A DNA stretch of 32,000 nucleotides from Thermodesulfobacterium commune DSM 2178 (GCF_000734015.1 NZ_CP008796.1:750001-782000), one strand, 5' to 3'; counted from the first letter of the stretch, positions 1,334 to 19,637 are shown. The notes: generated by a model not told the origin, from the letters alone. Numbers and translations are program-made.

Positions 1334-1559
1334 AGCCCTTCACCCTTTAATTTTTTGCCTCTATTATAATAAAAAATTAAAGCACAGTCAAGGTAACCTG
1401 CTTTTTTAAGTTTAATAATCTTCAAATTAAACCCATAGAGGCTGAATTAGGTTGTCAGATATTATATAAAAATTATTTTAGGATTTCGTTAGCCATAGCA
1501 TTCCCAAGTTTCTCAGCTGCTTTTAAATAACACTCTTCAATAATAGATTTGTATATCTG

Positions 1560-2890
1560 ACACTTGTCAAGAGAATTGTGTCTCCTTATAAAATCTCTTT
1601 ACAAACATTTGCCTCAATTCGTATAAAGCAGACTTAATTAAAGGAAGTGGTTTTTGCCATCTCGTTTTCTGAATCCGACTTACTGTTATGTATATCGCAA
1701 CCTCTGCTGTCTTGATTGATTGAAAATATCCCCCTGTATTTACCCTTATCAGCTCTATCCTGCTATTTATATTCTCAACCACATTCGTCGTGTATATATA
1801 CCTCCTCACCCCCTCAGGATATTTCTTATAAACAAAATAATGCTCCTTCTTTTTCAAAAGTCCCTTTATATAAGCTGGATACTTCTTCTCATAACTCTTA
1901 CATAATTCCTCAAATCTATTTAAGGCCCTCTCATACTCCTCTATCCTCTTTATAATGCTTAACTCCTCATAAAATTTTTTAGCATCCTGCTTAGACATGT
2001 TCCTGTTGATGTTCCTTTGCATGTGTACAAAACAAAGCTGATGATCTGTCTCAGGAAAGAGGGCTTTTATGGCTTGAGTAAGGCCAGGAAAATCATCACT
2101 CACTATTACCATAACCCTCTTAACTCCCCTCTTTATCAAATCATTAAGTATCTGGAGCCAGTCCTCCTTCGTCTCTGAATCAAAATAAATGTAATAAGAA
2201 AGTAAATTTTTTCTTCCCTCCATATCTATCCCGATGATATTATAAATAACTGCTTTTCTGATTCTGTTGGCTTCGGTATCTTTTATCTGAGTATGATAAG
2301 CGTCTATAAACATAGCAAACAAATTTTCTGGCAATTCTTTGGTTTTTAATTCTTTGGCTTGGTTATACAATTCTTCTTTAATTTCTTCTATTTGTTCTGG
2401 GGAGTAGGGGAGTTTCATAGATTGCAAGAGGGCTTTGATTTTATTGGGGGAGTAGCTTTGGAGAACGAGGTTAAGGATAAAGTCCTGGAAGGATTCATCA
2501 GCTTTTTGCCATTCAGGAGGAAGAATAGCAGGTCTGAATTCAGATTTTCTATCTCTTGGGACAGAGATACCAAGGTTACCTAAGAAACAGGCAAGTTGTC
2601 TTTCATAGTAACCATTAGCTTTATTATCAATACTATCTCTAAGGAATATTTCTCTTTCTTTTTTCATGAGAGCGTTTAAGAGGAGTGCAGCAGCCATTTT
2701 GATACCCTCTTTTGATTCAATTTTTGAGATTTCACTTAAAACTTTTTCTAAATCTAAGTCTAAGTTTTCCATTTTACAGACCTCCTGGTTAGTTTAGTCT
2801 TTTAGGTTTTATGTTATCATTAATTTAAAAAATATTAAAAATTTTTATTATGCCTCTAAAATATTTTATTAAAAGACACAATTTATATTC
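1560..2890 (-). mobile_element. IS256-family insertion sequence (ends approximate)
   Basis: Single 401-aa mutator-type transposase ORF. Imperfect terminal inverted repeats share the core AATTGTGTCT (1574-1583, and its reverse complement at 2874-2883) followed by TTA(A)TAAAAT. I recall an AATTGTGT core in the IS256 IR. No target-site duplication could be seen. Confidence 0.65.
1567..2772 (-). CDS. IS256-family (mutator-type) DDE transposase
   Basis: 401 aa. Family-typical stretches: GYYERQL...ISVPRDRKSEFRPAILP, FIDAYHTQIKD, VMVIVSDDFPGLTQAIKALFPETDHQLCFVHMQRN, TTNVVENINSRI. Confidence 0.9.
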   Translation of the reverse strand: MENLDLDLEKVLSEISKIESKEGIKMAAALLLNALMKKEREIFLRDSIDNKANGYYERQLACFLGNLGISVPRDRKSEFRPAILPPEWQKADESFQDFILNLVLQSYSPNKIKALLQSMKLPYSPEQIEEIKEELYNQAKELKTKELPENLFAMFIDAYHTQIKDTEANRIRKAVIYNIIGIDMEGRKNLLSYYIYFDSETKEDWLQILNDLIKRGVKRVMVIVSDDFPGLTQAIKALFPETDHQLCFVHMQRNINRNMSKQDAKKFYEELSIIKRIEEYERALNRFEELCKSYEKKYPAYIKGLLKKKEHYFVYKKYPEGVRRYIYTTNVVENINSRIELIRVNTGGYFQSIKTAEVAIYITVSRIQKTRWQKPLPLIKSALYELRQMFVKRFYKETQFS

Positions 2891-3368
2891 TACTCCCGTA
2901 TATCTCAGGAGAAATATAATTGACAGATTTCACCGTGCCTTCACCAAGGATTAATTTTTCTTGCACTCCACCCTTTAAAACTCCTTCGATTTTACACTCC
3001 CATATAATTGTGTTTTTAGAAAAAGTAAGAAGTTCTCTCCAAAAAGATTGACCTATGGTCGGTTTTGTGGGTATAAACTCATATGTAATTTCCTTTCCTG
3101 GGGTTTGAGCCGCGTTGTTTACTACTAAATATCCAGGGACCCTTTTTTGAAGTTCTGGTACTATAAACTCACTGATTTCTCCTTTATAGATATATCTGCC
3201 TCGGCTGTGTTCTACAGGATGTTGATAAACAAGTATAACCTTTGTTGCCCGTTCTGAATTGACAATTTTTACCTGCTCCCCAAGGTAATTAAGCTTAAAT
3301 TCCTTAGGGGTACAAACAAATAAGAAAACTGAGAAAAGAAGAAGCTCTATTTTTACAGATTTTTTCAT
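2883..3368 (-). CDS. Secreted or lipoprotein-like hypothetical protein
   Basis: The ORF-track start is 3386, but a GGAGGG Shine-Dalgarno lies 6 nt upstream of the ATG at 3368 (MKKSVKIELLLFSVFLFVC...). Has an N-terminal signal peptide. No recognisable family. Its stop codon overlaps the IS256 inverted-repeat core. Confidence 0.5.
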   Translation of the reverse strand: MKKSVKIELLLFSVFLFVCTPKEFKLNYLGEQVKIVNSERATKVILVYQHPVEHSRGRYIYKGEISEFIVPELQKRVPGYLVVNNAAQTPGKEITYEFIPTKPTIGQSFWRELLTFSKNTIIWECKIEGVLKGGVQEKLILGEGTVKSVNYISPEIYGSRI

Positions 3369-3498: not shown

Positions 3499-4261
3499 TT
3501 AGAAAAAGTTAGCTATTAAAACAGAGGTTTTATCTACTACTTCTTTAGCAGCTATCTCTTTTTTAAGGTTGGTTTGGGTAGCTGTTACCGCTAACTTAGT
3601 TCTATAGGTTTGATAGTTGGTAGTGATAGCTTGTTCTGTCTTGATAGTGGTAGATGTTCCTTGTTTAAGGTTAGAGGTTATTACACCTACAACCGGGTTT
3701 TCTGTTTTTTCCATGATCTGTATTTTCACAACTCCAGCAAAGGTTTCTATTTTGAGAGCTGAACCTATTAAAGCACCGCCAACATATCCAACTCCTGCAC
3801 CGATGGCTGCTAATATCAAAGCATCAACGTCTCTTCCACCTGCAATACCACCTGCCAATCCACCTGCTACGGCCCCGGTCAAAGCCACCATCTTTGGCTG
3901 CTGTTTTTCTGTAATAATCAAAATAAACTACGTTTACCTGAAGTATGTAATCAGCAATGCTTGGATCCTGAACTACATTATACCCTTTGGCTTGAAGTTT
4001 CTGCTCTATCGCATTTTTATATAAACTTGTGTCTATTTCTTGAAGTTGAGAGGTATTTCTGACATCTACAAAAATATTTTTATATTTGGCTCTTTTGGTT
4101 ACATCAAGAAAAATGGTATCTGTCATTTTATAGTTAGTGTAGAGTTCACGATATTCAATAGCTTCAGGCAAAGTAGCACAACCAAAAAGTTGAAGAGAAA
4201 GTGCACCAATTGTGGCAAAAGTTGCGACTTTTTTGGTAACTTTGCTTTTTAATATTGACAT
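3499..4261 (-). pseudogene. traT: TraT-family outer-membrane lipoprotein gene split by a frameshift
   Basis: Two overlapping ORFs (3824-4261 and 3499-3921) together align along the whole TraT protein. The N-terminal part has the lipobox LFGC, then ...KMTDTIFLD...VRNTS...AKGYNVV...YILQVNV. The C-terminal part has a Gly/Ala-rich segment, then ...IQIMEKT...LKQGTS...YQTYRTKLAVTA...LIANFF. The frame change maps at or near the A5 run (T5 on the + strand, 3904-3908). Confidence 0.7.
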
Positions 4262-4604: not shown

Positions 4605-4959
4605 GGGGGCGAAAAGGGCTCGACGGGGATAGGTAGGATTAAACAGCAGGCCGTGGTCGCACCCAACCACGTTAAATAGGGTGCAAAAACACAACTGCCA
4701 ACGAATACGCCTACGCTTTGGCAGCCTAAGCGTGCTGCCACGCACCTTTAGACCTTGCCTGTGGGTCTAAAGGTGTGTGACCTAACAGGCTTTGGGAGGC
4801 TTAATCGGTGGGGTTAAGCCTCCCGAGATTACATCCCACCTGGTAGGGTTGCTTGGTGCCTGTGACAAGCACCCTACGAGATTTTCCCACAGGCTAAGCC
4901 TGTAGCGGTTTAATCTGAACTATCTCCGGACGCGGGTTCGATTCCCGCCGCCTCCACCA
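4605..4959 (+). ncRNA. ssrA: tmRNA (SsrA), one-piece, CCA encoded
   Basis: The 5' GGGGGCG pairs with the 3' CGCCTCC and includes a G3:U pair. The T-arm is GGGTTCGATTCCC and the RNA ends in ACCA. The tag ORF GCC AAC GAA TAC GCC TAC GCT TTG GCA GCC TAA (4697-4729) encodes ANEYAYALAA. Confidence 0.95.
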
Positions 4960-5359
4960 AATTTTCTTTTTGATACCTTTTTTACCTACAACTTTTTCTT
5001 TTTCAAATTCCCCTGTTTTTAAAATCATTACCCCATATCCTCTTTTAACCTACCAGATATGGGCTCTCCCTATAAGCATAACAAGGATAGGTTGAATAAA
5101 TTGCCAACAACTGTAACCTCTATTTGAACCAGGTAAGGGTATAAGCTGGTCCAGTAAGGTTTTTATTCTAAAAATTTTTGTCATTAACGAGGCCTAACAA
5201 GGGTTCAGGTTAGTTTTTAGGATTTTGAAGGTAAGAGAGTTTTACGGCATAATAGCATCCTCTTAGGTTTAGGGAATTTTCACCTAATGGGTGATATTAT
5301 AAGAGTAAGTGGAAAAGGGAGAAAATCATGAATGATTGTAAGTTCCTGTCGGAAAATTT
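4960..5359 (-). mobile_element. Decayed, truncated IS1380-family copy (one terminal repeat plus 5' transposase remnant), inverted relative to the copy at 18703-19591
   Basis: The reverse complement of about 5040-5359 aligns base-for-base with 18703-19020, roughly four-fifths identical by eye. Example: ATATCACCCAT(T/C)AGGTGAAAA and CCTGGTTCAAA(T/C)AGAGG. The terminal repeat ends at 5359 (AAGTTCCTGTCGGAAAATTT). The transposase start ATG (5250-5248) is followed by premature stops (ATG CCG TAA). The inner side is truncated near the tmRNA 3' end. Confidence 0.6.
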
Positions 5360-5406
5360 ATAGGTTTTTATTGGCTATTTGTCTGAGAACCTACAAAAAC
5401 AAAAAC

Positions 5407-8064
5407 TTATTCCTCTTTCCATTCTTCTATTTGTGCACCAATTTGCTTAAGGGTTTCTTTTACTCTGAGATTAAGAGTGTTTTTATCAAAACCTTGCTCT
5501 GAATCTGAGACTGCCTTAATCTCTATTGAAATCTCCAGTGAAGATGCTTCTCCTTTTAGTGGTCCTATTACACCGCTTATAATATTAGAAATCTTATCCC
5601 ATGAAACATTGAATTTCAGTTTGAGATTTTTAATATTTTTTTCTTTTTTGCCAACTGGTTCATCTTTGATTTGATCATCCTTTCCCCCTACCACAATTTC
5701 AGGAGAAGTAACTATTTCTGCAGGTTCAGTTACATTTTGTTTTTTTCTTTGATTTTCTTTAAATTCCTTTGCAATTTCTTCTCTTAATACGACCCAGTCC
5801 ATAGCTGGAGTGACATCTTCACAATAATAAACTTCTGTGTCTTCTTTTACACCAACAATTCCCCTTTTTACTCCATCCTTTATTGCATTAACCAAAACTG
5901 ATTCATTTTCAAGAATTGGCATCCCAGGAGTTTTTAAAGAAAGTTCGTAAATATCTCTTAACAGTTTTTCATTTTCTTCCTTCGCGAATGTTTTCTCTAT
6001 GATGTATTTTGGGGTTATACGGTCTAATATTTTTTCTTGATCTTTAAGATATTGCCTGACTCTCTCAGCAATAGTCTCGCTGCTTCCAACAGTTGGAATA
6101 CCAAGGTCTTTAAATAAAAGACCTTGTTTATCTAACCATGCAAGATGTCTGTATGTGGAGATGATTTTAAAAGGTAAATCCTTTTCCAAATCTTTAATTT
6201 TCTGTTTTAATTCATTCACATTTTCCTGCGTTAATGTATTTAAAAGTGTTTTATCGCTTTGAATGCTTCTTAAAGCAAGCAATCGCCTGATTGTTTTAGT
6301 TAGAGCTGAATATCCATTGTTATCCATACAAATAACAAAAACTGTATTTCTATATACTCTAAATCCTGCACCTGCTTTATCAAACAACTCTGAAACAAAC
6401 TCATTCGTAATTGTAGAACCATAGAAAAACTTGGCTGAAAGTACAACGAGCTTGAGAGCTTTATTGTCTGGAATATCTGAAGAACTTTCTGGCCAGACAT
6501 AGACCTCCATACTACTGCCTGCATACTTCTGGATAAACTTTTTTATTTCCTCCTGAACGTTCTCTTCTGATATAGTCTCTTCTCTGTCCACAATGACACG
6601 ATTAAGATTCGGCCTGTTAAGGAATGCATACTGTTTACCTTCAGAGTGAAAAAACCAGAGTTGTTCTTCAAGCTTACTCACTGCATCTCCAAGTATAGTT
6701 GTTGGAATACCTTCCCTTAAAAGTGCTACACGAAGTCTTGGCAAAGTAGTTCCCTTTCTTTCACCACCACTAAAAGAATATAGAAATACACTTGTAGCAA
6801 TGCCTGTGGCAATTTTATATTTTTCGTATTCACTGCCCATCTCTTTATCTATCTTAGTTGCTTTCTCTAATATATCTGAAGCTATAACACTTTCATACTC
6901 ATTACCAATGTGTTTTACAAATTCTCTTCTTATAGATGGGTTTTGAAGATTTACCAGTGAAGACTGGATTAAAGGTGAGGCAACTTTTCTCTTGTAAAGA
7001 TCAGATACAACTTCAGCCAAAAGCCTCAGAACGCCTCTTGTTCTTTGAAATGTTGGGAAAGACCCCCATCTCTCATATAGAACATCAATGATTTCTGGAT
7101 GAAATGGATAGGCATGTTCAATTTTTTCTCTATATTCCAAAGACTTTACTTCAGGAGGAACATCTGTACCAAGCCTTTGATAAAGGTCAAAGTAGTATTG
7201 AGAAACTTCCTTTATTGATTTATCGTCTCCTATATCGTCAAACAGCCTTTTACGGATTACCTCATAAATTTCTACTCCTTCAACTGGCGTGTAGATTGAT
7301 TCAACTCTGCCATAGACATTCTGCAGTTGAGTGAGTGTTTTTTCTGCATACTCATCATAGGTTTCAAGAATGCTTGCTGGCAGGGTAATTACAAGGCAGG
7401 AGTTTTTAGATGATGCAACAACCTCTGTAATCTCCTGAAGAAATGCAAGAGTCTGTCCATGAGTTATTTTTTCAGTTTTTTCTACCTGACTGGCTTTAAC
7501 AATGTATTCAAGCAGTTCATCAATAAGTATTAGTGTTGGACCTGAGTTGTCTATAATTTCTCTTAGTTTTTCTTTTCCTGGTGAAACTCTTTTTCTGTCA
7601 TGCTCTGCTATTGTCTCGTATTTTCCTAACTGATGAGCAATTTCACCCCAAGGGGTTCTTCCCTGCAGGGCATCTGCCTGAGTTCCAACAAAAACAGCCA
7701 CTCTGGCATTTGAAGGCACTTTTATTCCTTCAAGCTGGGGTAAATGTTTAATTTTTTCAAAATTTTTTACTGTGTGATACAGTGTTACAAGGGCATGGGT
7801 TTTACCACCGCCAAAAGGTGTTTGAAGTTGAATCACAGGGTCTGATTTGCCACCACTTAGGCGAACTACTACATTGTTAACCAAATTTTTTAATCCCTGA
7901 GTTAAATAGGTTTTTTGAAAAAAAGTAACAGCATCGCTGTATTCTAAAGGTGCATTTCCTTTCACTACATCCCCTAAATCAGCAGCAAATAATGCCTCAC
8001 TTAATTTACCCTCTCTTATGTCTTTATGTGGCGTTGCTACCTGCCACCAGCTTGGCAGAGCCAT
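5407..8064 (-). CDS. DUF499-type P-loop ATPase (third gene of the helicase-methylase-ATPase cassette)
   Basis: 885 aa. N-terminal WWQVATPHKDIREGKLSEALFAADLGDVV. Walker A is PFGGGKTHA (7791-7818) and Walker B is TLILIDELL (7510-7536). An AGGAGGG RBS sits in the 18-nt gap after the upstream gene. Confidence 0.85.
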   Translation of the reverse strand: MALPSWWQVATPHKDIREGKLSEALFAADLGDVVKGNAPLEYSDAVTFFQKTYLTQGLKNLVNNVVVRLSGGKSDPVIQLQTPFGGGKTHALVTLYHTVKNFEKIKHLPQLEGIKVPSNARVAVFVGTQADALQGRTPWGEIAHQLGKYETIAEHDRKRVSPGKEKLREIIDNSGPTLILIDELLEYIVKASQVEKTEKITHGQTLAFLQEITEVVASSKNSCLVITLPASILETYDEYAEKTLTQLQNVYGRVESIYTPVEGVEIYEVIRKRLFDDIGDDKSIKEVSQYYFDLYQRLGTDVPPEVKSLEYREKIEHAYPFHPEIIDVLYERWGSFPTFQRTRGVLRLLAEVVSDLYKRKVASPLIQSSLVNLQNPSIRREFVKHIGNEYESVIASDILEKATKIDKEMGSEYEKYKIATGIATSVFLYSFSGGERKGTTLPRLRVALLREGIPTTILGDAVSKLEEQLWFFHSEGKQYAFLNRPNLNRVIVDREETISEENVQEEIKKFIQKYAGSSMEVYVWPESSSDIPDNKALKLVVLSAKFFYGSTITNEFVSELFDKAGAGFRVYRNTVFVICMDNNGYSALTKTIRRLLALRSIQSDKTLLNTLTQENVNELKQKIKDLEKDLPFKIISTYRHLAWLDKQGLLFKDLGIPTVGSSETIAERVRQYLKDQEKILDRITPKYIIEKTFAKEENEKLLRDIYELSLKTPGMPILENESVLVNAIKDGVKRGIVGVKEDTEVYYCEDVTPAMDWVVLREEIAKEFKENQRKKQNVTEPAEIVTSPEIVVGGKDDQIKDEPVGKKEKNIKNLKLKFNVSWDKISNIISGVIGPLKGEASSLEISIEIKAVSDSEQGFDKNTLNLRVKETLKQIGAQIEEWKEE

Positions 8065-8082
8065 GTTGCCCTCCTGTATTGT

Positions 8083-10788
8083 TTAATCAAATAATCCTAA
8101 TGTGGATTCTTTTTGTTTGGTATCATCTTTTTTATAACTTTCTTTTCCATATAAAAATCCCTGAAGCATCTGTTTTTCTTTATCTCCATCAGGCAAAACC
8201 TCGGAAATCGCCTGGGCTACCTGCCAGAAAGCACTGTTATTTGTATTTCCCGTTTTTTCTAATAGCTCTGATATTGCTTTTTTGTTATTTTGCTCCCAGT
8301 ATAAAAGGCAGGCATGAAGTATGTCTATCAGACTTTTAAATTTTCCATCTTCTATGTCTTTTAGAAATTTTTTGCCTCTGTCAACAGCATCAAGCACATA
8401 AATAAACTCTTTTTCCTTTTTGATAAATCCCTTATCCCACTGCTCTGTTATCTCCACTCCAACAGCCTGAGCCAGTTTTCTTGCATCATCAAAATGAACC
8501 TTTGCACCATTATAAGTCCAGCGCCATAGTAGATAGAACCTTGTTTCTTCATCAATTCCACCAAGTTGTGGATTGTTTAAAATCCTTGAGAGAGCATATT
8601 CACTTACAGTTTTACGAATGAATTCAAGCAGTTCTGAAGCAGAAACTTTTTCCCCAGATAATTTTTCAACACTCTCATATTTACCAAAAACTTCCATTGC
8701 AGGACCTATGGCAGAGATGAAGAAGTCACTTCCACCTATTCCCTCATTCCAGAACTGGTCAAGTTTTTCTTTAACTCTTTTTTCTATTTCTGGTTTGATT
8801 TCGTTAAAGTAGGCAGTTTCTTTTTTTATACGTTTACGGCATACCATATAAATAGAGGAGGCAAGAGCGGCTGATTCATTTGCACGCAGACGAGCCTTCA
8901 TTTCTGTATGTAGCGGCCAGCTTGCAGTGAGATACAAGCCAGAATTAAGTAATGCATTTATAATAGTTTCCCATGCCTCGGTGGATTTATGGGCAAAGAC
9001 GATACAAGCAATACCATCAGGTTTTAGTATGCGATATATTTCTTTAAAAGCTCTGGTAATCATATCTTCAAAAAACTTTTTCCCACCTTCAAAACCACCT
9101 TCACCGTGCGAATAAGCAACAATTTCTTCAGATTTTGGTGTAAGTGGAGTGGAAAATAAATCGGGATATAGATCTCCAAGAGTTCTCTTTAGCCAAACAT
9201 AGAAAAAGTCAGAAAGATAAGAATATGGTACATTGTCATAATAAGGCGGGTCTGTGATAACAGCATCAAAATAGTTGTCGGGATAAGGTAGAGAAGTGGC
9301 AGAGGATTGAATAACGGTAGCGGGGATAGAATTGAATAAACTACAATGTCTTACTACATTCAAGTTGTATTCTACTGAATTTAACCAATCACCTGTGGAA
9401 CCACTAAAGGGGTTAGATTCAAAATAGTCCCAGACCATTGGTAATGCTTGGCGACTGAAAGAACCGGCAATAGTTTCTTTAGTATTAGCCCATCTGCTAA
9501 TAGAGTTATTTTTTTCTGCAACGTTATCAATACTTAGCCCCAAATAACTCACCACAGCTTTGGCGTATTCAGGGTCATATTTTTCTTTAATCATTTCTTT
9601 ATATGCATTCCTTACCTTTTCCACAAATGTAATCAATGCAAGCTTTTGCCTTGAGTTAAAAAGATCGCCCCATGAATTCATTCCATAAACCCAAACATTT
9701 ATTACACCAAAGGAAACTGGCACTCTAACTAATTCTTCATCAGGCACAGGATCAATTCCCCATTCTTGCATTAGTTTTGACCTCTTTTCTTCCAGATATT
9801 TTTCTGCTTCTTTAAATACTTCTAAATCTTTTTGTGTTGCCAGTCTATATGTTTTCCCCTGTTTTTTGGGATGATGCAAAACAACTGCAACCATTCTCTG
9901 TCCCGCTTTTCCTTCCTGAAACTGTTTTCTTACCTCTTTATCACTTATCCCGGTTTTACAGCATGGACATAAGACTTTTGCCCGAGAAACAGTTCCTATT
10001 TCCGGGTCAAAATCTATATTCTTACCCTCTCTTATTTCAAAACTAATTTTGTTTCCCTCTGGAATTATTTTAAATGTAACTTTTTTGTTATCTTTTTTTG
10101 CAAGCCATCTCTGTCTTACAAGAGGAATATCTGCCCCACAGGCAGGGTTTGTGCATCTTATTGTTCTTGCCCATATGTATCCAACCGGAATTGATCCGTC
10201 TTCATCTTCTGGATAAAATCTTCCAATTTCCTTCTTCGCCTCCTCTAAAACCCAGTTGCCCCATTTTTTTACATCTTCAAGGAGCGGATTTATTTCCTTT
10301 TCACCAAGCAGGTTTGAAGCCTTTGCCTTAACTGGCTTACCATACTTCTGCGGATACTCCAAGGTGCATTTTAAAATCAAGACAGCTACTGGATTTAAAT
10401 CATTTGCATATGTTTCACATCCAAGCCTTAATACTTCAAGCGGAATAGAGCCACCACCAGAAAATGGGTCTATCACTTTTGGTGGTTTGCCACCATTTGC
10501 CTTTAAAATCTCTTCTCTTGCTTGATTTATGATATCTCTGTTTAATGAATTTTCCCACTTAGATAATTTTGAGATAAAATTGGATCGCTTTATTCTTTCT
10601 TCTTCATCCTCAGGCTCTGGTGTTAAACAGGCATAAATAGATGCTCTTGATGATGCAAGAGGACGCCTCGCCCACCATATATGCAGTGTTGATATATGTC
10701 CATGACGAATATTTTTTTCCCTTGCAGATTCTTTACTTACCTCTTTAACAGGAAAATCAGATTCAATAAAGCTCATCCTTATATCCAT
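8083..10788 (-). CDS. DUF1156-type DNA methyltransferase with internal zinc ribbon (N6-adenine/N4-cytosine class motifs)
   Basis: 901 aa. LHIWWARRP (10660-10686). SAM motif I is [12 protein letters not shown] (10441-10476). Cys clusters are CTNPAC (about 10132-10158) and CPCC (9950-9976). Catalytic motif IV is DPPY (9241-9252). Confidence 0.85.
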
Positions 10789-10804
10789 TAATTTTTTACC
10801 TCCT

Positions 10805-10948
10805 CAACTTCCTCTTTTTTGCTCTCCTCTAACAAATGAGCCAAAGATACCAATAGTTTTGACCTTGTATTTGTTCTATCTCTTTTTTATGAGTTTGAAG
10901 TTGTCTTTTTATCTCTTCAAGTCCTTTTAAAGGTTTTTTCTTATTCAT
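10805..10948 (-). pseudogene. Relic of a minimal nucleotidyltransferase (MNT, HEPN/MNT toxin-antitoxin type) gene: frameshifted and 3'-truncated
   Basis: The minus-strand ATG at 10948 gives MNKKKPLKGLEEIKRQLQTHKKEIEQIQ.... An adjacent frame then reads KVKTIGIFGSFVRGEQKRGS*, with the stop at 10807-10805. G-I/L-FGS-x-x-RGE is the MNT active-site signature. The D-x-D part and the rest of the gene are missing. Confidence 0.5.
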
Positions 10949-10978
10949 CGTGGTTAAGTCCTTTCTTAAAAAAATTTT

Positions 10979-13900
10979 TTATTCATTCAATACCTCACTG
11001 GCACTTTTCTTCCAATCTTTTACTAAATATCTGACAATATCAACCAATGGTTGTGGTTCAATTTTTTCAGCAGGATTCTGAATAAGATAGAGCCTGGGAT
11101 TAGAAGCTGCATCTGTAACAATATAAATCCAGTATTCATCTTTAAGCCTTTGTGCCATAAGCCATTCATTTGGCGTAAGGGCTATTGCACCTTCCTTTGC
11201 CCTTGCTTTTACTTCAATGTAGCGATAATTTCCTTTTTCATCATAAGAACGAATATCATAGCCTAAATTCTGTGAAGATACATCTTCAGGAATTCTTCCA
11301 TTTTTTCGCTCAAATTCCATTACCACATCCATACCAATCTTTTCAATTTCTTCATCACTAACCATGTCTGCCTCTAATTTTTGAGGAACAACTCTTATGA
11401 CACCCAATATTTTTGGCTCTGTAAAATGTAAATGGATATCTGCTTCAATTTCTTTTTCTAATCGCTCTTTTTTACGTTGTAAATCTTCCTTTTTTCTAAT
11501 CTCATTTTGAATTATAACATCAGGGATGTTTTCCCCTTTTAGTTTTCTCGTTTCATACTCAGCGATTTTGGTCTCTGATTCAAAAATCATTGACTCAAGT
11601 GAACGAATTCCATATTTTCTCTTTACTTCAGCTTCTTTCTGGCGTCTTTCTAAAAGCTCTTTTTTGTAATTTTCAAGTCCCTGTCCTATAACAAAATATT
11701 TAACTGCATTTTCATCTGGATTTTCTGTTGATATTTGCATAGAGTTTTCATTGAGAGGTTTTAAATCCCATATAACAGCAGGATTAATGAATGAAAGTTT
11801 ACCATCATTATTCTGATAAACTGCAAAAAGTCTCTTCCCTGCAATTTCATTTCTTCCATCTCTTATTTCTGACTCCAAGAACCAGATATAGCCCTGTTTT
11901 TTTCCTTCTGGATCCATAAAGGTGGCTCCACGTGCAAGATCTTTAGAGTAATGATTAAGAATTGTCTCAATAACCCCTTCTAATAGAGGATGTCCCATTG
12001 CAACAAATTCAGCCTGAGATCTAAATGCCTGTTCTTTGTCAAAAGAGATTTTTGAATACTCTTTATAGATTTCTCCAAATTTTACCTTAAAACTATGAGG
12101 TTGATTCCGAACCTCAAAGGGCACACTGGTAATTCGCCAGAGGCCATCTCTTCCTTTTTCCATCCTTATATTGAGAAGCTTGGCAGCTCTTTTGAAAAAC
12201 TCCTCCACATACTCAGGAACAAGTCTGTTTTCCTTTGCTATTCTTTGTTCACCTAAAATTTTTGTAAGGTCTATGTGTCTGGTTGCAAGAGCCTCTAAGG
12301 TTGTTTGCTTTACTCTTTCAATGGCTTCATTATCTGGAATTAGCTCCAGATCTTTTAGAATATCTTCCATTGTTCTGCGATTGGCAATTGCATCAAGAAT
12401 AAGATCTTTAAGATTTTTCCCAACCAGAATCTCACCGATTACATCAAATACCCTGTCTGAACCAAGATGTTCTTTTATCTGGGAGAGTTTTTCAAAAAGT
12501 CTTGCAAGTATTCTACCTTCTCTTGTATCAACTGCTACAAGATTGTATATGTGAACTTCATGTTGCTGTCCATAGCGATGAATTCTTCCCATTCTCTGTT
12601 CTAAACGGTTAGGATTCCACGGAATATCGTAGTTTACCATTAACCAGCAAAATTGAAGATTTATACCTTCTCCACCTGCCTCAGTTGAAACCATTATCTG
12701 TGTCTCATTTCTAAAATCAGCCTCTGCTTTGATTCTTGCATCAAGATTCATCCCACCATGAATGAATGTAACAGAGTAACCCCATGACCTTAATTTTTCC
12801 ACGAGATATTCCAGAGTGTCTTTGGATTCTGTAAATATGAGAAGTTTTATTTTTGAGTCCTGAATTTTTTCTGCATCAATGACTTTTTTAAGTTCATTAA
12901 GTTTGGTTTCAATTTCCTTTTTTTCTACGTTTTTTGCAAGTTGTACTAATTCTTCAAGTTTATCAATCTCCTGCTTTAATTCTTCTAAGGTCTCAGAAGA
13001 GGTGAGTTTTTCAAGAAGTTCCTCTTCTTCTTTCCATCTCTCTCTTTCCTCTAAATCTTCTATAGAGGTCTCATCATAATCTGCTTCGGATATAAGCAGA
13101 CCTTTTTCATATAGTTCTTTTAGTCTTTTATGTCTTCTTTCAAGAGATTTTCTAACAGCTCTTACACTTGATGCAAGACGGCGCTGAAGAATTGTAAGAG
13201 CAAAGGCAACATTGCGTTTTTCTTTTTCAATTGCTTTATTAAAGTATTTTTCAACATATTCTGTTACAGCATTGTAGAGCACCTTTTCATCATCTGAAAG
13301 ATAATATTTAATAGTTTCTACTTTTCTTGGTGGAAAAAGTGGAGCACCGTTGAAATCTTTTAAATCTTCTTTGAGTCTTCTTAAAAATAGAGGATTATCC
13401 TTATTTTCAATAGATTCTGCAAGCATCTCTGTGGTGGCAAAAAATCCTGGTTCTAAAAGGTCAAGAAGTAGTCGAAAGTTTTCTGGATCTCCTCTATGTG
13501 GAGTTGCCGTAAGAAACAGTAAATAGTTTGTAATGGAGGAAATAAGCTCTCCAAAATGGTATCTTTGAGTTTTGCTTATTTTTTCTCCATATTTGTAGGC
13601 AGACATTTTATGGGCTTCATCTACAATACACAGGTCCCATCTTGAATCTTTAAGAGCAAACATTACATCTTCCTGTTTTGCAAAATCCATAGATATTATT
13701 ACCTGGTTTCTTTCAAGAAATATATTTCTGCCCCACTCTGAATTCATGGTGCCTCTGTTTACAACTGTAAAATTTTCGTGAAACCTTTCTTTCATTTCTC
13801 TAAGCCACTGGTCTTTAAGATGTCCTGGAACAACAATGAGAATTCGCTCCACTAAACCACGATATTTAAGTTCTTTGATAAGAAGACCTGCCATTATCGT

Positions 13901-14296
13901 TTTTCCAGCTCCTGGGTCATCTGCAAGCAAAAATCTAATACGAGGATTTTTTAATATATAGTGATATATAGCATCTATTTGATGGGGAAGTGGATCAATC
14001 TTAGAAACATTTATTGCATATAGTGGGTCAAATTGAAAGGCATTTCTTATTCTAATTGATTCAAGGCAAAGAAATACTCTTTCACCATCAGCTGAAAATG
14101 AAAAAGATTCTTCCTTGACAACCTGAATTTTTTCCAAATCTTCGCATGAAAGAATTGGATCATAGTATTGTCTTGTTTTAACTCCAATAGCTTCAAGTTT
14201 AAAGTAATTTTCGTTGAATGGTATGAATGACTTTACCCTTAAATCTTCCTGCCAGAACGGACCTCTGATAATACTGTCAATTTGAATCGATTTCAT
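10979..14296 (-). CDS. SNF2/SF2 helicase with C-terminal PD-(D/E)xK (DUF3883-like) nuclease-fold domain (first gene of the cassette)
   Basis: 1105 aa. Motif I is ADDPGAGKT (13898-13924), motif II is DEAH (13610-13621), motif III is LTATPHRG, motif V is STEAGGEGINLQ and motif VI is QRMGRIHRYGQ. An E/K-rich coiled-coil insert lies between the RecA lobes. The C-terminus reads GYDIRSYDEKGNYRYIEVKARAKEG...EYWIYIV. Confidence 0.85.
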   Translation of the reverse strand: MKSIQIDSIIRGPFWQEDLRVKSFIPFNENYFKLEAIGVKTRQYYDPILSCEDLEKIQVVKEESFSFSADGERVFLCLESIRIRNAFQFDPLYAINVSKIDPLPHQIDAIYHYILKNPRIRFLLADDPGAGKTIMAGLLIKELKYRGLVERILIVVPGHLKDQWLREMKERFHENFTVVNRGTMNSEWGRNIFLERNQVIISMDFAKQEDVMFALKDSRWDLCIVDEAHKMSAYKYGEKISKTQRYHFGELISSITNYLLFLTATPHRGDPENFRLLLDLLEPGFFATTEMLAESIENKDNPLFLRRLKEDLKDFNGAPLFPPRKVETIKYYLSDDEKVLYNAVTEYVEKYFNKAIEKEKRNVAFALTILQRRLASSVRAVRKSLERRHKRLKELYEKGLLISEADYDETSIEDLEERERWKEEEELLEKLTSSETLEELKQEIDKLEELVQLAKNVEKKEIETKLNELKKVIDAEKIQDSKIKLLIFTESKDTLEYLVEKLRSWGYSVTFIHGGMNLDARIKAEADFRNETQIMVSTEAGGEGINLQFCWLMVNYDIPWNPNRLEQRMGRIHRYGQQHEVHIYNLVAVDTREGRILARLFEKLSQIKEHLGSDRVFDVIGEILVGKNLKDLILDAIANRRTMEDILKDLELIPDNEAIERVKQTTLEALATRHIDLTKILGEQRIAKENRLVPEYVEEFFKRAAKLLNIRMEKGRDGLWRITSVPFEVRNQPHSFKVKFGEIYKEYSKISFDKEQAFRSQAEFVAMGHPLLEGVIETILNHYSKDLARGATFMDPEGKKQGYIWFLESEIRDGRNEIAGKRLFAVYQNNDGKLSFINPAVIWDLKPLNENSMQISTENPDENAVKYFVIGQGLENYKKELLERRQKEAEVKRKYGIRSLESMIFESETKIAEYETRKLKGENIPDVIIQNEIRKKEDLQRKKERLEKEIEADIHLHFTEPKILGVIRVVPQKLEADMVSDEEIEKIGMDVVMEFERKNGRIPEDVSSQNLGYDIRSYDEKGNYRYIEVKARAKEGAIALTPNEWLMAQRLKDEYWIYIVTDAASNPRLYLIQNPAEKIEPQPLVDIVRYLVKDWKKSASEVLNE

Positions 14297-14333: not shown

Positions 14334-14362
14334 ATTTTATCAAAAAATATAAAATATTTCAA
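14334..14362 (-). promoter_or_regulatory. Sigma-70-type promoter candidate for the helicase-methylase-ATPase operon
   Basis: On the minus strand: TTGAAA (14362-14357), 17-nt spacer, TAAAAT (14339-14334), about 38 nt upstream of the helicase ATG. Confidence 0.35.
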
Positions 14363-14494: not shown

Positions 14495-15388
14495 TTATTC
14501 TAATACATTTTCATTTGTTCTTTCTTTAATTTTCTGAAGTTGTGCATGATATTTTTCTAATCTCTTTTTAAATTCTTCTTGATTTTCAGGTTCCCATAAT
14601 CCAATTTTATATCCCTCAATTATCATATCATAAACAGCTTTTTCTATCGCCTCCTGAACAGCCATTTCTACCGGCTCATTGGCTGCAATTCCTGCTTCAG
14701 CCTCTAAAAGACGGTTCAACCTTACATATCTAAAAATCCCAGCTGTTATCTCTTTTGATAGAATCACCTTAGTTGCCTGAACAGTTTTTAAAACAGTCCC
14801 AGTTTTAACAGAAACTGCCCTTAAGTAAATAGTAACACGGTCTACTCTATATTCCACAGCACCACCTAAACCAAAATACTTAGCTCCGATTCCTCCGCTG
14901 GTGATGTTTGTGTCATATCCGATTATTCCTCCCTCAAAAAGAACTCCTGCATAAAGAAGGGGCGGGAGAGGTTCGATAGTTTTTTTCTCATTATCGTTTA
15001 AGTAAATATCTCTCATTTGAAGAATAATTCTTCTTTCTTGAAGAAGGTTTGCTAACCCTTCTCTTTCTACAGGTAAAAACCATCCGCTATCTTCCAGAGC
15101 TTTAATTAAAATTGAAGTTGCTCCCTGAGTGACAGCTGTTGAAAAGTTAGTAGATCCGGTAGGTGGTTTATATTGTCCTGTTTGATCACGAAATTTATAA
15201 ACTGCTACAGGGACTTTTTGTTTAGGTTTAGGTAGTGAAATTAAATCTTCATGGATAGAAGTAATGTATTCAGGTCCACTTACAGCTTCTTGAGAAAGAG
15301 TTTTGGGTAAACTCCCTGCACAACTTGTTAAAGCTACAATTAAAATTGCAACAAATATAAATTTTAGACCTTTTTTAAAAAAATTCAT
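14495..15388 (-). CDS. csgG: Curli secretion channel lipoprotein CsgG
   Basis: 297 aa. Lipobox LTSC. Strong colinear similarity to E. coli CsgG as I recall it (VAVYKFRDQTGQYKP...NFSTAV, GWF.PVEREGL.NLL.ER, EGGIIGYDTN..SGG.GAKYFG.G, NEPV). Confidence 0.9.
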   Translation of the reverse strand: MNFFKKGLKFIFVAILIVALTSCAGSLPKTLSQEAVSGPEYITSIHEDLISLPKPKQKVPVAVYKFRDQTGQYKPPTGSTNFSTAVTQGATSILIKALEDSGWFLPVEREGLANLLQERRIILQMRDIYLNDNEKKTIEPLPPLLYAGVLFEGGIIGYDTNITSGGIGAKYFGLGGAVEYRVDRVTIYLRAVSVKTGTVLKTVQATKVILSKEITAGIFRYVRLNRLLEAEAGIAANEPVEMAVQEAIEKAVYDMIIEGYKIGLWEPENQEEFKKRLEKYHAQLQKIKERTNENVLE

Positions 15389-15410
15389 GTTGTATCCCCC
15401 TTTTATTCAT

Positions 15411-15842
15411 TTATGGACCTGTAAACTGCGGAACTACAAGTTGAGTTGTTTGTCCTGTGCTAAGGTCTGTTACTGTAAGTTGAATTCCACCTGTAACATA
15501 ACTTACAGTAATTTCAAACTTACCCATGAGATAAGTTCCAGGCTGTATCTGAGAACCTCCTTCATCTTCCCCAAAAGCCTGTGCGACTATACGAGAAGCT
15601 AAATTGTAAATGATTTGTGATTGAAGAACATTTTCAAACTCTTTTAATAAGCTTGGGCTTTCAAAGTCATAATCCTCTTTAAACTTGTTTTGCATTTTTG
15701 CTTGCTCAAGATAAAAAGACCCATAAAGAGGGTTTCCTCCAAAAGATGGATTGGTAAATTCAAAAACAAGCTCACTAGAAAAACATAAAGATGGATATAA
15801 AAATAAAACTGTTAAAATTAAAAATAAATTCTTACTTTTCAT
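15411..15842 (-). CDS. csgF: Curli assembly component CsgF
   Basis: 143 aa with a signal peptide. FEFTNPSFGGNPLYG matches CsgF (FQFRNPNFGGNPNNG). The C-terminal LTVTDLSTGQTTQL matches LNVTDRKTGQTSTI. Confidence 0.85.
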   Translation of the reverse strand: MKSKNLFLILTVLFLYPSLCFSSELVFEFTNPSFGGNPLYGSFYLEQAKMQNKFKEDYDFESPSLLKEFENVLQSQIIYNLASRIVAQAFGEDEGGSQIQPGTYLMGKFEITVSYVTGGIQLTVTDLSTGQTTQLVVPQFTGP

Positions 15843-15858
15843 TCTTTCCCCCTTATCT

Positions 15859-16245
15859 TTATAAAATTTTCGATTCCATTTCTAATTGTTTCTTGTATTT
15901 TTCTAAATTTAAAAGAAATCTTGTAACTACTTCCAAAGCTTCTTTTACCTTTAACTCTATATCTTCTTCTCTTGGTTGAACCAAATTTTGATAAAGAATG
16001 GTGTCATCAATTTTTATAGTTATTACACTTCCAAATTTAGGATCTACCCACTCTTCTATGGTTATGTTAAAGATATCTAATCCTGAGGGAGGACTCCAGT
16101 TTTTGACAAACTCATCATAAAAAGTTCTACCTATTTTAGATTTAGTATGATCAAAAATTAAACCTGTAATTTCTTCTTTTTGAGCTGAAACATTTGATAA
16201 AAGCAGCGAAAGAAAAACTATGATAAAAAAAATTCTTTTTTTCAT
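15859..16245 (-). CDS. csgE: Curli secretion specificity factor CsgE
   Basis: 128 aa with a signal peptide. ITGLIFDHTKSKIGRTFYDEF matches CsgE ([21 protein letters not shown]). ...FGSVITIKIDDTILYQ matches WGSWITITVNQDVIFQ. Confidence 0.85.
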   Translation of the reverse strand: MKKRIFFIIVFLSLLLSNVSAQKEEITGLIFDHTKSKIGRTFYDEFVKNWSPPSGLDIFNITIEEWVDPKFGSVITIKIDDTILYQNLVQPREEDIELKVKEALEVVTRFLLNLEKYKKQLEMESKIL

Positions 16246-16644
16246 TTAAAAACCATCCTTTTGGAACCCCTTCTCTTTTATTAAATTTCCGTTTTTATAA
16301 AGCGTTGCAACAATGTTATATTTATCTTTTGAGAAAAGATTAAGTTTGCTTTGAGAAAAGCATTTCTCTTCACCTGGGTTAAGAAATATGTTATTAAACT
16401 GTTTTGAACTACTTTTTCCAGATTTTCCGCTCTTTGTTATTTCAACAAAAACTTCATAGAAAACTTTTCCTTTTCCCTCATTTCGTCCGCAGGTTTTAAT
16501 AGAAACAAAATCTTTTTCTTCTTTGATTTCAATCCATATTTTGCAAAGCTCATCTGTTAAATCAATAGTATAAAGTTTTCTTATAGCAAAAGAGAAAAGA
16601 GGGAAAATTAAGAGAAAAAGAGAAATCATAAAAAATTTATACAT
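16246..16644 (-). CDS. Small secreted protein, CsgC/CsgH-like curli chaperone candidate
   Basis: 132 aa with a signal peptide, in the csgC position of the locus. SGKSGKSSSKQFNNIFLNPGEEKCFSQSKLNLFSKDKYNIVATLYKNGNL loosely parallels E. coli CsgC (EGSSGQSQTKQEKTLSLPANQPIALTKLSLNISPDDRVKIVVTVSDGQSL). Confidence 0.45.
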   Translation of the reverse strand: MYKFFMISLFLLIFPLFSFAIRKLYTIDLTDELCKIWIEIKEEKDFVSIKTCGRNEGKGKVFYEVFVEITKSGKSGKSSSKQFNNIFLNPGEEKCFSQSKLNLFSKDKYNIVATLYKNGNLIKEKGFQKDGF

Positions 16645-16674
16645 TTTATCTCCTCAGTTTTTACTCCTCAGTTT

Positions 16675-17193
16675 TTACTTAAATTTGTTATATTGAATGA
16701 TGTTAATGTTTCCTCCATTTCCATAGTGAGTTAATGAATAGCTTAAATTTGAACCGCTTTGTAAAGCAAAAATGTTATTTAAATTTCCAAAAATGTTTAA
16801 ATAAATAGAGTTGTAGCTACCTAACTGAAGCTCTTTTATACTGTTTCCTATACCATTTTCAACCACTGAGGAATAATTATTATTTCCTGTTTGATAATTG
16901 GAGAAATAATTGTTTGAACCTGTTTGAATAAGAATAGAGCGGTTCTTAAAATCACTTTGGTAAGAAGAGGCAAAATTAAAAAAACCAATCTGTTCAATTT
17001 TAGCATCGTTTAACATTCCATTTTGGTTTATTTCTGCAAAGTTTTTAAGTCCCCTCTGTTCAATGTAGGCTGAATTTTCAATTCCTACTTGTTCAATATA
17101 GGCTGAATTAGAATCAGAAAAAGAAATCTTAGGCAAAAGAAATATAAAGAAAATCAACCATAAGAAACTACTTAATAACTTTTTAGCAACCAT
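16675..17193 (-). CDS. Curlin-repeat protein (minor or nucleator subunit, CsgB-like)
   Basis: 172 aa with a signal peptide. Repeated N-x-A-x-I-x-Q-x-G motif (NSAYIEQVG, NSAYIEQRG, NFAEINQNG, NDAKIEQIG). The repeats become degenerate toward the C-terminus. Confidence 0.7.
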   Translation of the reverse strand: MVAKKLLSSFLWLIFFIFLLPKISFSDSNSAYIEQVGIENSAYIEQRGLKNFAEINQNGMLNDAKIEQIGFFNFASSYQSDFKNRSILIQTGSNNYFSNYQTGNNNYSSVVENGIGNSIKELQLGSYNSIYLNIFGNLNNIFALQSGSNLSYSLTHYGNGGNINIIQYNKFK

Positions 17194-17256
17194 TTTTAAC
17201 TCCTTTTGAGAAACTTTTTTAAAATTTTACCTGGCACAGAGGGGAAAATTCAAATT

Positions 17257-17841
17257 TTACTTCTGAGTTATGGTTGCTGTATTATACGAACCATACTGAG
17301 TAATGTTTGCAGTATAGTATCCGTATCCGTTAGTCATACCCTGAGTTATGGTAGCAGTATTTCCTACGGAATAGCCTATACCTTGTACGATGTTTGCGTA
17401 ATTATGATCAGAGTATTGATCTATGGTTGCTTCATTTCCGAATCCATTTTGAGTAATAAAAGCATCATTATGATCTGCAAACCAATGTTGAGTAATATCA
17501 GCAGTGTTATAGCCTCCGTTTTGCTTAATAACAGCTTCGTTATGATTAGACCAACCTAATTGCTGAATATTTGCAACATTTGAAAAACCATTCTGCTTGA
17601 TTTCAGCGTAGTTGTTATTGTTATTATCTTGAGTAACAGAAGCAGTATTCCCACTACCTATTTGCTCAATGATGGCTTCAGTGCATCCTGTATAGCCATT
17701 TCCTCCACAATTAGGTTGAGAATTTCCACCACCACAATTACCACCCCAGCAATTATTCCAACCTGATGCCATTGCTGGTGTTACTAATGCTAAACTAAAA
17801 AGCCCTGCAATTAATACCTTTTTAATACTCATTTGTGACAC
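17257..17841 (-). CDS. Curlin-repeat protein (major subunit, CsgA-like)
   Basis: 194 aa with a signal peptide (…TPAMA/SG) and a Gly/Asn/Cys-rich N-terminal segment. About six curlin repeats follow (AIIEQIGSGNTASVTQ, AEIKQNGFSNVANIQQ, AVIKQNGGYNTADITQ, AFITQNGFGNEATIDQ, ...TANITQYGSYNTATITQ). Confidence 0.75.
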   Translation of the reverse strand: MSQMSIKKVLIAGLFSLALVTPAMASGWNNCWGGNCGGGNSQPNCGGNGYTGCTEAIIEQIGSGNTASVTQDNNNNNYAEIKQNGFSNVANIQQLGWSNHNEAVIKQNGGYNTADITQHWFADHNDAFITQNGFGNEATIDQYSDHNYANIVQGIGYSVGNTATITQGMTNGYGYYTANITQYGSYNTATITQK

Positions 17842-18027
17842 CTCCTTTTTTAATTTTAACCCCTCTATGCCAGACTTTTGCTTTCTGCTGCTTTTTTAAT
17901 TTCTTTATAATTAAAATTATGGATTTGAAAAATTAAAAACAAATTGACAAAAAGTTCAAAGTTAAAAAAAATTTAGACTTTAAAAATTAGTTATAAAAAA
18001 ATTAAAACTTTAGTAGTAAAACTTTAA

Positions 18028-18609
18028 TTAAAAATGGTTAATTTCAAGGAAAATACTGACTAACTGAGTTCTGCTTTGTACATTAAGTTTTCGGAAAATT
18101 CTATTTAGATGAGCTTTTACAGTTTGTTCACTTATGTTTAATTTGTCTGCTATTTGTTTATTAGAAAGTCCTTTACAAACTAAAGAAATTATTTCTTTTT
18201 CCTTAGGAGTAAGAGGAAGTCTTTTCTCTTTTAAGTTTTCGAGATTATTAACTAATTGTTTTAAGTATTTATTATCAATCCATATTTCTCCCTTTTTTAT
18301 AACTTTTAAAGCTTTTTTAAAAAGCTCAAGATCCGTATAAAGGGCTATTATTCCTGATAATTTATGTTGAACCATAGCTCTTAGTAAAAGATTAGGCTTT
18401 ATTCCTGTATCTACAAGAACAACTTTAGCTTTTGGATAATTTGATAAAATTTCTGAATTTAAACTAAAAAAATCAGTTAAAATAATTTCTGGATCTTTAC
18501 AAATTTTTTCCTCAGCTATGCAAGGAATGAAATCTTCTAAATTTTTTAAAAGATTGTAAAAAGCTTGAGTAACAAGGTTGTTTTTGAAATTAAGCAGTAC
18601 TTCTATCAA
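18028..18609 (-). CDS. LuxR/FixJ-family transcriptional regulator, CsgD-like
   Basis: 193 aa. The C-terminal HTH is LTPKEKEIISLVCKGLSNKQIADKLNISEQTVKAHLNRIFRKLNV. Has an N-terminal receiver-like domain. It is the first gene of the curli locus. It starts at a TTG codon (18609-18607) with an AGGA RBS about 9 nt upstream. Confidence 0.7.
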   Translation of the reverse strand: MIEVLLNFKNNLVTQAFYNLLKNLEDFIPCIAEEKICKDPEIILTDFFSLNSEILSNYPKAKVVLVDTGIKPNLLLRAMVQHKLSGIIALYTDLELFKKALKVIKKGEIWIDNKYLKQLVNNLENLKEKRLPLTPKEKEIISLVCKGLSNKQIADKLNISEQTVKAHLNRIFRKLNVQSRTQLVSIFLEINHF

Positions 18610-18702
18610 AACTTAGATCCTTAAATTATGTCTAAACCTCAAAATATATCTATTTTAAAACTTATCATAAATAAATTAAAAAACAACAAACTTAGGGAAC
18701 CC

Positions 18703-19591: not shown

Positions 19592-19637
19592 AAACCTCAA
19601 AGAAAGGGGCATAAAAATCAGAAGTTTTGAGAAAAAC

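Follow-up and report, generated by a model that had tools for sequence, protein, structure and literature searches.

A 32,000-nucleotide (nt) stretch of the Thermodesulfobacterium commune DSM 2178 chromosome (NZ_CP008796.1, positions 750001-782000 of 1,764,045 bp; here called the window, with positions counted from its first letter) almost certainly carries an Hma operon, hmaA-hmaB-hmaC, which is complete and apparently functional and is also described as a Type-1 DUF499-centred BREX-related (Type-1 BR) system. Three co-directional open reading frames (ORFs) on the minus strand encode proteins of 1105, 901 and 885 amino acids (aa), with spacers of 190 nt between hmaA and hmaB and 18 nt between hmaB and hmaC. 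An initial annotation had described three large genes of these sizes with an 18-nt last gap, and the ORFs bear this out. The same annotation had attached the label Hma, naming the right system according to the PADLOC profiles, and had credited the name to a Pseudomonas hotspot study; it comes instead from the PADLOC paper, which reported Hma (helicase, methylase, ATPase) in 1,638 instances from 26 phyla (Payne et al. 2021; PMC8565338). Hma is still counted with the PADLOC-derived systems in a 2025 review. The trio was re-described in Nucleic Acids Research in 2026 under the name “Type-1 DUF499-centred BREX-related system”, with a proposed mechanism resembling restriction-modification (RM-like; PMC12839542). 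The novelty attributed to the locus in the initial annotation was overstated: the system is already known, having been in PADLOC since 2021 and occurring in thousands of genomes, and nothing about it is categorically new.

Evidence for the identity of the operon came from profile searches. The PADLOC HmaA profile PDLC00659 matched the first gene product with an E-value of 4e-219 (728 bits, profile positions 46-1168 of 1176), two HmaB profiles matched the second near full length (PDLC00661, 5.7e-154; PDLC00660, 1.4e-148), and the HmaC profile PDLC00662 matched the third at 1.1e-153 over positions 1-940 of 941. Since these profiles cover all three proteins almost end to end, the locus is assigned as a canonical Hma system. 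The families that the initial annotation had expected from such searches (DUF499, DUF1156, SNF2/Helicase_C and DUF3883) were all recovered. In Pfam, the first protein matched SNF2-rel_dom, Helicase_C and NOV_C (formerly DUF3883; 9.4e-26, positions 1-91 of 91), the second matched DUF1156 (4e-23) and, weakly, N6_N4_Mtase and D12, and the third matched DUF499 alone (1.7e-51). An NCBIfam scan of the three proteins returned no model above its cut-off. Hma loci have been defined by single gene copies on one strand, free of pseudogenes and with three embedded genes at most separating neighbours (bioRxiv 10.1101/2024.01.29.577857); in the window, each gene occurs once, all three ORFs are intact on the same strand, and the two gaps are those given above.

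Several known systems share components with this operon. The HmaA helicase belongs to the same Snf2 subfamily as DrmD of DISARM, and the PADLOC runners-up for HmaA were DrmD (3e-162) and the BrxHI/BrxHII profiles (1e-127 and 1e-111). DISARM was rejected: the DrmD model NF038317 scored 374 bits against a cut-off of 610, the window holds no DrmA or DUF1998 (DrmB) gene, and no DrmC was found near the hma operon. Canonical BREX was rejected on the absence of PglZ, BrxA and BrxB from the window and of any match between HmaC and a BrxC profile. A Pfam scan of the neighbouring genes across positions 209-27705 gave non-defence identities for all that could be named and left two ORFs without a match. 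HmaB has a local match to the PADLOC PglX/PglXI profile (5e-12), and the PADLOC matches of HmaC are the HmaC profile and a generic DUF499 model, with no BrxC or PglY profile among them. The initial annotation had given DUF499 as the ATPase family of BrxC/PglY; BrxC is now best matched by DUF6079, and DUF499 proteins belong to sister clades distinct from BrxC (PMC12839542). The same study describes the trio as homologous to BrxC, the PglX-type methylase BrxXI and BrxHII of Type-3 BREX. In addition to lacking the three BREX genes named above, the T. commune locus differs from Type-3 BREX in having a DUF499 rather than a DUF6079/BrxC ATPase, a methylase with a DUF1156 N-terminus, and a helicase with a nuclease predicted to be active.

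Type-2 BR systems (PLD-helicase/DUF1156/DUF499), which are covered by the “anti-phage-associated” models NF042962-NF042964 and which probably correspond to the “RL” (restriction-like) candidate from Gao et al. 2020, have paralogous DUF499 and DUF1156 components. They were rejected on scores of 143 against a cut-off of 1100 for NF042964, 230 against 1000 for NF042963 and 228 against 1200 for NF042962; Pfam gave no PLDc match in HmaA, and neither an N-terminal HKD/PLD nuclease nor a DUF3780 gene was found. Type I and Type III restriction-modification systems were rejected because no HsdS was found, in line with the earlier statement that a specificity subunit is missing, and because the ResIII Pfam match reflects only a generic superfamily 2 N-lobe. 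Matches of HmaB to the PADLOC MTase_II profiles were weak next to those to the HmaB profiles. Since each of these systems lacks a match to its defining component or scores below threshold, the locus is considered to be Hma proper, and not DISARM, canonical BREX or the PLD-helicase variant.

Translation of hmaA supports the helicase motif set read in the initial annotation, comprising DDPGAGKT (126-133), DEAH (226-229), TATP (263-266), STEAGGEGINLQ (537-548) and QRMGRIHRYGQ (567-577). Among 16 HmaA homologues, K132/T133, the DEAH box and R571/R574 are invariant, as are D1014, E1028, K1030 and E1044 in the NOV_C domain at the C-terminus. AlphaFold models this C-terminal domain as alpha-beta-beta-beta-alpha-beta with a predicted local distance difference test (pLDDT) score of 70-88, placing D1014, E1028/K1030 and E1044 on successive strands and a helix. 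At the other end of the protein, strands 9-11, 19-26, 31-38, 48-50 and 58-60 form a small modelled barrel (pLDDT 74-85, in a whole model averaging 58) that may be Tudor/SH3-like. The closest solved relative of HmaA, both by sequence search and by fold (full-length RapA), is RapA, whose N-terminal domains are Tudor-like.

The S-adenosylmethionine (SAM) motif I, the DPPY motif and the Zn ribbon that the initial annotation had noted in the second gene are all present and conserved: an alignment of 26 HmaB sequences shows no variation in the motif I GGG, in DPPY or in any of the four ribbon cysteines. The C-terminal 250 residues are also conserved in sequence across homologues. HmaB is predicted to be of the N6-adenine type because of DPPY and the order of SAM motif, insert and catalytic motif. 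Profile and sequence searches of PDB sequences with HmaB and HmaC found no solved relative. In HmaC, the expected N-terminus (WWQVATPH...FAADL) and Walker A and B motifs were likewise confirmed, with G85-T89 and D182/E183 invariant in the alignment of homologues. The AlphaFold model of HmaC is weak overall (mean pLDDT 64); its C-terminus is modelled at ~72-83 as beta 813-821, alpha 822-837, beta 844-852, alpha 861-874 and beta 877-884. The top PDB match for the HmaC model is the N-terminal part of BrxC in the BrxC-BrxB-PglZ complex 9zll (E 5e-4).

As modelled, HmaA and HmaC fit the published Type-1 BR architecture, in which the helicase has an N-terminal Tudor domain and the ATPase a C-terminal RRM/ferredoxin-like one; in the T. 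commune proteins both of these assignments are tentative. The T. commune system and Type-1 BR are the same entity, with a DUF499 ATPase that has an intact P-loop, a DUF1156 N6-methyltransferase whose recognition insert separates the SAM motif from DPPY (and carries the conserved Zn ribbon in HmaB), and a Snf2 helicase (Tudor-Snf2 in Type-1 BR) with a C-terminal active PD-(D/E)xK domain. An N-terminal HEPN RNase is fused to the Type-1 BR ATPase in 1370 of 2446 taxa (PMC12839542); the T. commune copy differs in belonging to the subset without this fusion.

Additional evidence came from the distribution of the genes. Homologues at E <= 1e-10 number at least 8,000 for HmaA and at least 7,800 for HmaC, and the closest of them outside T. 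commune, at 60-77% identity, are from Thermodesulfobacteriota, Actinomycetota (Hakubella), Bacillota, Synergistota, Methanocella, Archaeoglobales, Bathyarchaeia and others. A scan of species-representative genomes gave 80 loci. All 28 loci with at least 6.3 kb of sequence upstream of hmaC have hmaA, hmaB and hmaC in this order on one strand, in bacteria and archaea of many phyla, so the co-inheritance that the initial annotation had proposed as a check was found throughout; hmaB lies immediately upstream of hmaC in 61 of the 70 loci with any room for it. The spacer is 2-2212 nt long between hmaA and hmaB and 10-3973 nt between hmaB and hmaC, wide ranges that represent the embedding of other genes. 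Within T. commune, more than 10 independent assemblies carry the operon at 99.8-100% identity, and its three ORFs are intact. DUF499 relatives were found on 160 plasmids; a search of phage genomes found no HmaC relative. Thermus plasmids and megaplasmids (e.g., NC_017767.1, Thermus thermophilus HB8, 81 kb) encode HEPN-fused (“Swt1 family HEPN”) DUF499 proteins with ~33% identity to HmaC.

The best explanation of the locus as a whole, an Hma system with an RM-like mechanism, is in our judgement somewhat more probable than not, and the mechanism taken by itself could equally well be right or wrong. According to the RM-like model, HmaB would mark self DNA by N6-adenine-type methylation of the host at a specific motif, using the recognition insert with its Zn ribbon. 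HmaC, an ORC/Cdc6-like AAA+ protein related to BrxC and predicted to have DNA-binding modules, would bind DNA or a phage cue, and would license or assemble the complex on unmarked DNA. HmaA would then restrict the target, moving along it as an ATP-driven, RapA-like Snf2 translocase and nicking or cutting it with the NOV_C domain at its C-terminus. Gene content, motifs, linkage and synteny were observed here, and from them we infer methylation by HmaB, discrimination of self from non-self, and the role of HmaC.

Experimental support for this model comes by analogy, for the HmaA part only and in a Halomonas homologue only. Liu et al. showed that HmaA from Halomonas meridiana SCSIO 43005, on its own, reduces T4 ~100-fold in E. 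coli, and that defence requires the motif VI arginine and D1084/E1104/K1106/E1121 of the PD-(D/E)xK nuclease (Liu et al. 2024; PMC11232893). In the same study, the isolated NOV_C domain nicked supercoiled plasmid in vitro in a Mn2+-dependent manner. The initial annotation had known of no mechanistic description; such descriptions exist, both for HmaA defence and nicking (PMC11232893) and for the system as a whole (PMC12839542). The Halomonas and T. commune systems have the same families in the same order on a single strand, with Snf2 and NOV_C (D...ExK...E) in HmaA, DUF1156 in HmaB and DUF499 in HmaC; the T. commune proteins are somewhat shorter (HmaA is ~1180 aa long in Halomonas and 1105 aa in T. 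commune), and the T. commune host is a sulfate reducer growing at 70 °C.

Several observations weigh against the RM-like model. Halomonas HmaA protected cells without HmaB or HmaC, and its phenotype was like dormancy or abortive infection (Abi) rather than simple restriction, with cells surviving at a multiplicity of infection of 2 and not at 10 (PMC11232893). T4 grown on a host overexpressing HmaB was not affected differently, and ~15-20% of the surveyed hmaA loci are without hmaB or hmaC (PMC11232893). The overall confidence of both structure models is low. The Halomonas data have led to consideration of an alternative in which HmaA is a self-sufficient effector that brings about an Abi- or dormancy-like halt of phage replication, with HmaB and HmaC in accessory roles, as regulators, range-extenders or independent modules, and no self-marking RM pair formed with HmaA. 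The protection by HmaA alone, the lack of effect of HmaB overexpression on T4 sensitivity, and the loci without the partner genes are all consistent with this alternative. Against it stand the three-gene order and tight linkage maintained in every informative locus across phyla, the invariance of the SAM motif, DPPY and Zn ribbon in HmaB, and the translational closeness of hmaB and hmaC. T4 DNA is glucosyl-hydroxymethylated, and for this reason the T4 test says little about protection by adenine methylation. We consider the alternative of a self-sufficient HmaA to be somewhat unlikely.

A second alternative is exclusion of the kind seen in BREX, where methylation would mark self DNA and replication of unmodified phage DNA would be blocked without cleavage, leaving the HmaA nuclease a minor or backup role. 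This is supported by the homology to BrxC, BrxXI and BrxHII of Type-3 BREX and by BrxC being nearest to the HmaC model in the PDB. PglZ, BrxA and BrxB are missing from the window, however, and the PD-(D/E)xK residues are invariant in HmaA homologues and are needed for defence in Halomonas (PMC11232893), which makes exclusion without cleavage decidedly improbable. It is more doubtful still that the locus is a decaying passenger, non-functional in DSM 2178. Insertion sequence (IS) elements and relics surround the operon, an embedded toxin-antitoxin gene is dead, and the neighbouring traT gene is split, but the three long ORFs are intact with all catalytic residues present, the operon is near-identical and intact in the more than 10 independent assemblies, and the promoter-like site and Shine-Dalgarno sequences are kept. 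A housekeeping function, with RapA-like recycling of RNA polymerase alongside an RNA or protein methyltransferase, can be set aside almost entirely, given a NCBIfam RapA score for HmaA of 214 against a cut-off of 576 and the nuclease fusion, patchy cross-domain distribution (60-77% identity), plasmid carriage and embedded defence cassettes, which fit defence.

The sites where these sequence features lie, together with the neighbouring elements discussed below, are collected in the table.

Table. Coordinates of the hma operon, its protein features, and nearby elements in the window
Feature	Position	Strand	Remarks
hmaA	10979..14296	-	Snf2/RapA-like translocase with C-terminal PD-(D/E)xK nuclease; AIH03988
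hmaB	8083..10788	-	predicted DUF1156 N6-adenine-type DNA methyltransferase; AIH03987
hmaC	5407..8064	-	DUF499 ORC/Cdc6-like AAA+ ATPase without HEPN fusion; AIH03986
HmaA N-terminal small beta-barrel, aa 1-60	14117..14296	-	possibly Tudor/SH3-like; AlphaFold model
HmaA Snf2 ATPase core, aa ~100-620	12437..13999	-	motifs I, II (DEAH), III, V, VI
HmaA NOV_C/DUF3883 nuclease domain, aa 984-1072	11081..11347	-	D1014, E1028-x-K1030, E1044
HmaB DUF1156 N-terminal helical domain, aa 12-66	10591..10755	-	highly conserved in 25 homologues
HmaB SAM-binding motif I DPFSGGGS, aa 107-114	10447..10470	-	translation and alignment
HmaB four-Cys Zn ribbon C212/C217/C274/C277 (CxxxxC...CxxC)	9958..10155	-	in insert between motifs I and IV
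HmaB strain-variable patch, aa 304-337	9778..9879	-	contigs L004, L005, L088
HmaB catalytic motif IV DPPY, aa 513-516	9241..9252	-	translation and alignment
HmaC Walker A GGGKT (aa 85-89) to Walker B LILIDE (aa 178-183)	7516..7812	-	translation
HmaC C-terminal beta-alpha-beta-alpha-beta domain, putatively ferredoxin/RRM-like, aa 813-885	5410..5628	-	model, moderate confidence
Ribosome-binding site GGAGG	8070..8074	-	within hmaB-hmaC spacer, 5 nt from hmaC ATG
Promoter-like site TTGAAA-17-(TG)TAAAAT	14334..14362	-	38 nt upstream of hmaA ATG; consensus match only
MNT-type nucleotidyltransferase antitoxin relic	10804..10948	-	one frameshift, truncated past GSxxRGE motif; HEPN partner lost
Partial decayed IS1380-family copy, ~300 bp	5061..5360		between ssrA and hmaC; inverted relative to relic at ~18700-19600
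Transfer-messenger RNA (tmRNA) gene ssrA	4605..4959	+	convergent with hmaC; context only
IS256-family element, intact	1559..2897		401-aa transposase, NCBIfam 4.9e-82; 8-bp target duplication

In addition to the ribosome-binding site in front of hmaC, GAGGAGG lies upstream of the hmaB start. The single promoter-like element that the initial annotation had placed upstream of the first gene is the best on the minus strand and lies inside the segment common to all strains, which ends at 14392. Such matches are no commoner in the region than in shuffled sequence (28 versus 29.5), and the site is therefore only suggestive.

The 190-nt gap between hmaA and hmaB contains the relic of a toxin-antitoxin gene, as the initial annotation had proposed. 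The gap encodes MNKKKPLKGLEEIKRQLQTHKKEIEQIQGQ and, following a +1 shift, KTIGIFGSFVRGEQKRGS and a stop. When repaired, the peptide matches NTP_transf_2 (4.7e-4) and shares 45-57% identity with intact MNT genes found inside other Hma loci. In a related locus (L012), an intact pair encoding a 107-aa MNT protein and a 117-aa HEPN protein (RxxxxH) sits exactly at the hmaA-hmaB junction. The match of the repaired peptide and the intact pair at the same junction identify the relic as what is left of an MNT-HEPN toxin-antitoxin cassette embedded in the operon. Such a remnant agrees with what is documented for Hma loci, 63% of which have genes embedded between the hma genes, many of these being defence systems (Payne et al., bioRxiv 10.1101/2024.01.29.577857). 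A tendency to embed genes is common to the Halomonas and T. commune loci. They differ in that Halomonas has Septu (ptuAB) in the hmaA-hmaB interval and additional genes ahead of hmaC, whereas the T. commune operon is compact and retains only the dead MNT remnant.

Outside one patch in hmaB, the 9-kb operon has no more than three scattered substitutions among the T. commune assemblies. Three contigs (L004, L005 and L088) carry 18 nt changes clustered within 132 nt (9779-9910; HmaB aa 293-337), resulting in nine replacements: L304S, H306N, K308G, Q319E, K320E, V324I, E327K, K330Q and S337K. Across the rest of their 11.5-kb common block, these contigs are identical or differ by at most 3 nt. The density of changes is beyond that of uniform mutation, and the patch consequently looks like a short recombination tract between otherwise clonal strains. 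Its place is in the insert that separates motif I from DPPY, directly past the Zn ribbon, and the residues that differ among strains are at positions that also vary across the family in the HmaB alignment. One possibility suggested by this position is that aa 304-337 could determine the DNA motif that is methylated and restricted; we regard this as unlikely. Another assembly (L001) has a run of N at exactly the site of the patch. The apparently split hmaB of that assembly (303 + 564 aa) was considered as a pseudogene and rejected, as the split is this N-run in the scaffold.

The surroundings of the operon are a variable, IS-ridden neighbourhood. From left to right, the window contains comB, a CBS-domain gene, the IS256 element, an ORF, the split traT gene, ssrA, the IS1380 fragment and the hma operon, followed by a curli operon (14495-18609), a decayed IS1380 copy (~18700-19600), nadE, glnA and further housekeeping genes. 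The initial annotation had seen a typical defence island next to the tmRNA gene and between IS relics. The tmRNA gene and the IS relics are there; a tmRNA-integrated island was rejected, as searches of the window found neither an integrase gene nor a directly repeated copy of the tmRNA 3' end, and for the same reasons the closeness of ssrA is regarded as proximity and not as a demonstrated integration site. The two IS1380 copies (5061-5360 and 18700-19640) are inverted, share segments of 79-89% identity and bracket the hma and curli operons, which suggests past IS-mediated inversion or rearrangement rather than simple island insertion. Pfam found nothing in single fragments of the IS1380 relic, and the concatenated conceptual translation matched NCBIfam IS1380 at 8e-14.

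T. commune assemblies share a constant segment that runs from comB and stops 96 nt upstream of hmaA, with a strain breakpoint at 14392/14393. Beyond it, csgG joins hmaA in strains of the DSM 2178 type. Upstream of hmaA, another contig (L006, 1-3672) carries an IS256-like element together with a McrB-like AAA protein and a PLD protein, and in two more (L092, 16735-21680; L094, 16617-20049) unrelated DNA, with an AAA_14 ATPase and a Cas3-like_C helicase among its contents, truncates csgG at 14583 or 14700. The right-hand genes, read in the identical contig L091, are flagellar and GGDEF genes. The IS256 element is present in DSM 2178 and absent from all metagenomic T. commune contigs, and it clips the 3' end of the adjoining ORF, which encodes 167 aa here and 182 aa in other T. 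commune. The TraT-like lipoprotein gene (3499-4261) is split into two overlapping ORFs of 145 and 140 aa; the split is identical in every T. commune assembly examined and is accordingly read as a fixed or programmed frameshift. The curli (type VIII secretion) cluster that adjoins hmaA upstream is complete, comprising csgG, csgF, csgE, a CsgC-like gene, two curlin-repeat genes and a LuxR/CsgD-like regulator, in a sulfate reducer growing at 70 °C. A second defence-like gene pair was seen ~4.3 kb to the left of the window (L087:1-5652; L088-L090), less than 10 kb from the Hma operon in T. commune assemblies; it encodes a 1072-1083-aa PLD-Snf2-Cas3-like_C helicase and a ~1236-aa MmeI/Eco57I-type methyltransferase.

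T. commune DSM 2178 is a thermophilic sulfate reducer with an optimum of 70 °C, whose genome paper describes Sanger sequencing only. A compact, intact Hma copy free of embedded genes in a cultivable thermophilic type strain is of practical value, and suits work on the motif methylated by HmaB, the role of the DUF499 ATPase and the structure of a three-protein complex. Thermus thermophilus is genetically tractable and could serve the study of the DUF499 ATPase family. The strain-variable HmaB patch provides a concrete hypothesis for the seat of target specificity. If that hypothesis were true, co-occurring T. commune strains would have Hma systems of different specificity, amounting to a natural specificity switch, and the patch, together with a cultivable thermostable host, would allow the proposed self-marking step of Hma/Type-1 BR to be mapped directly.

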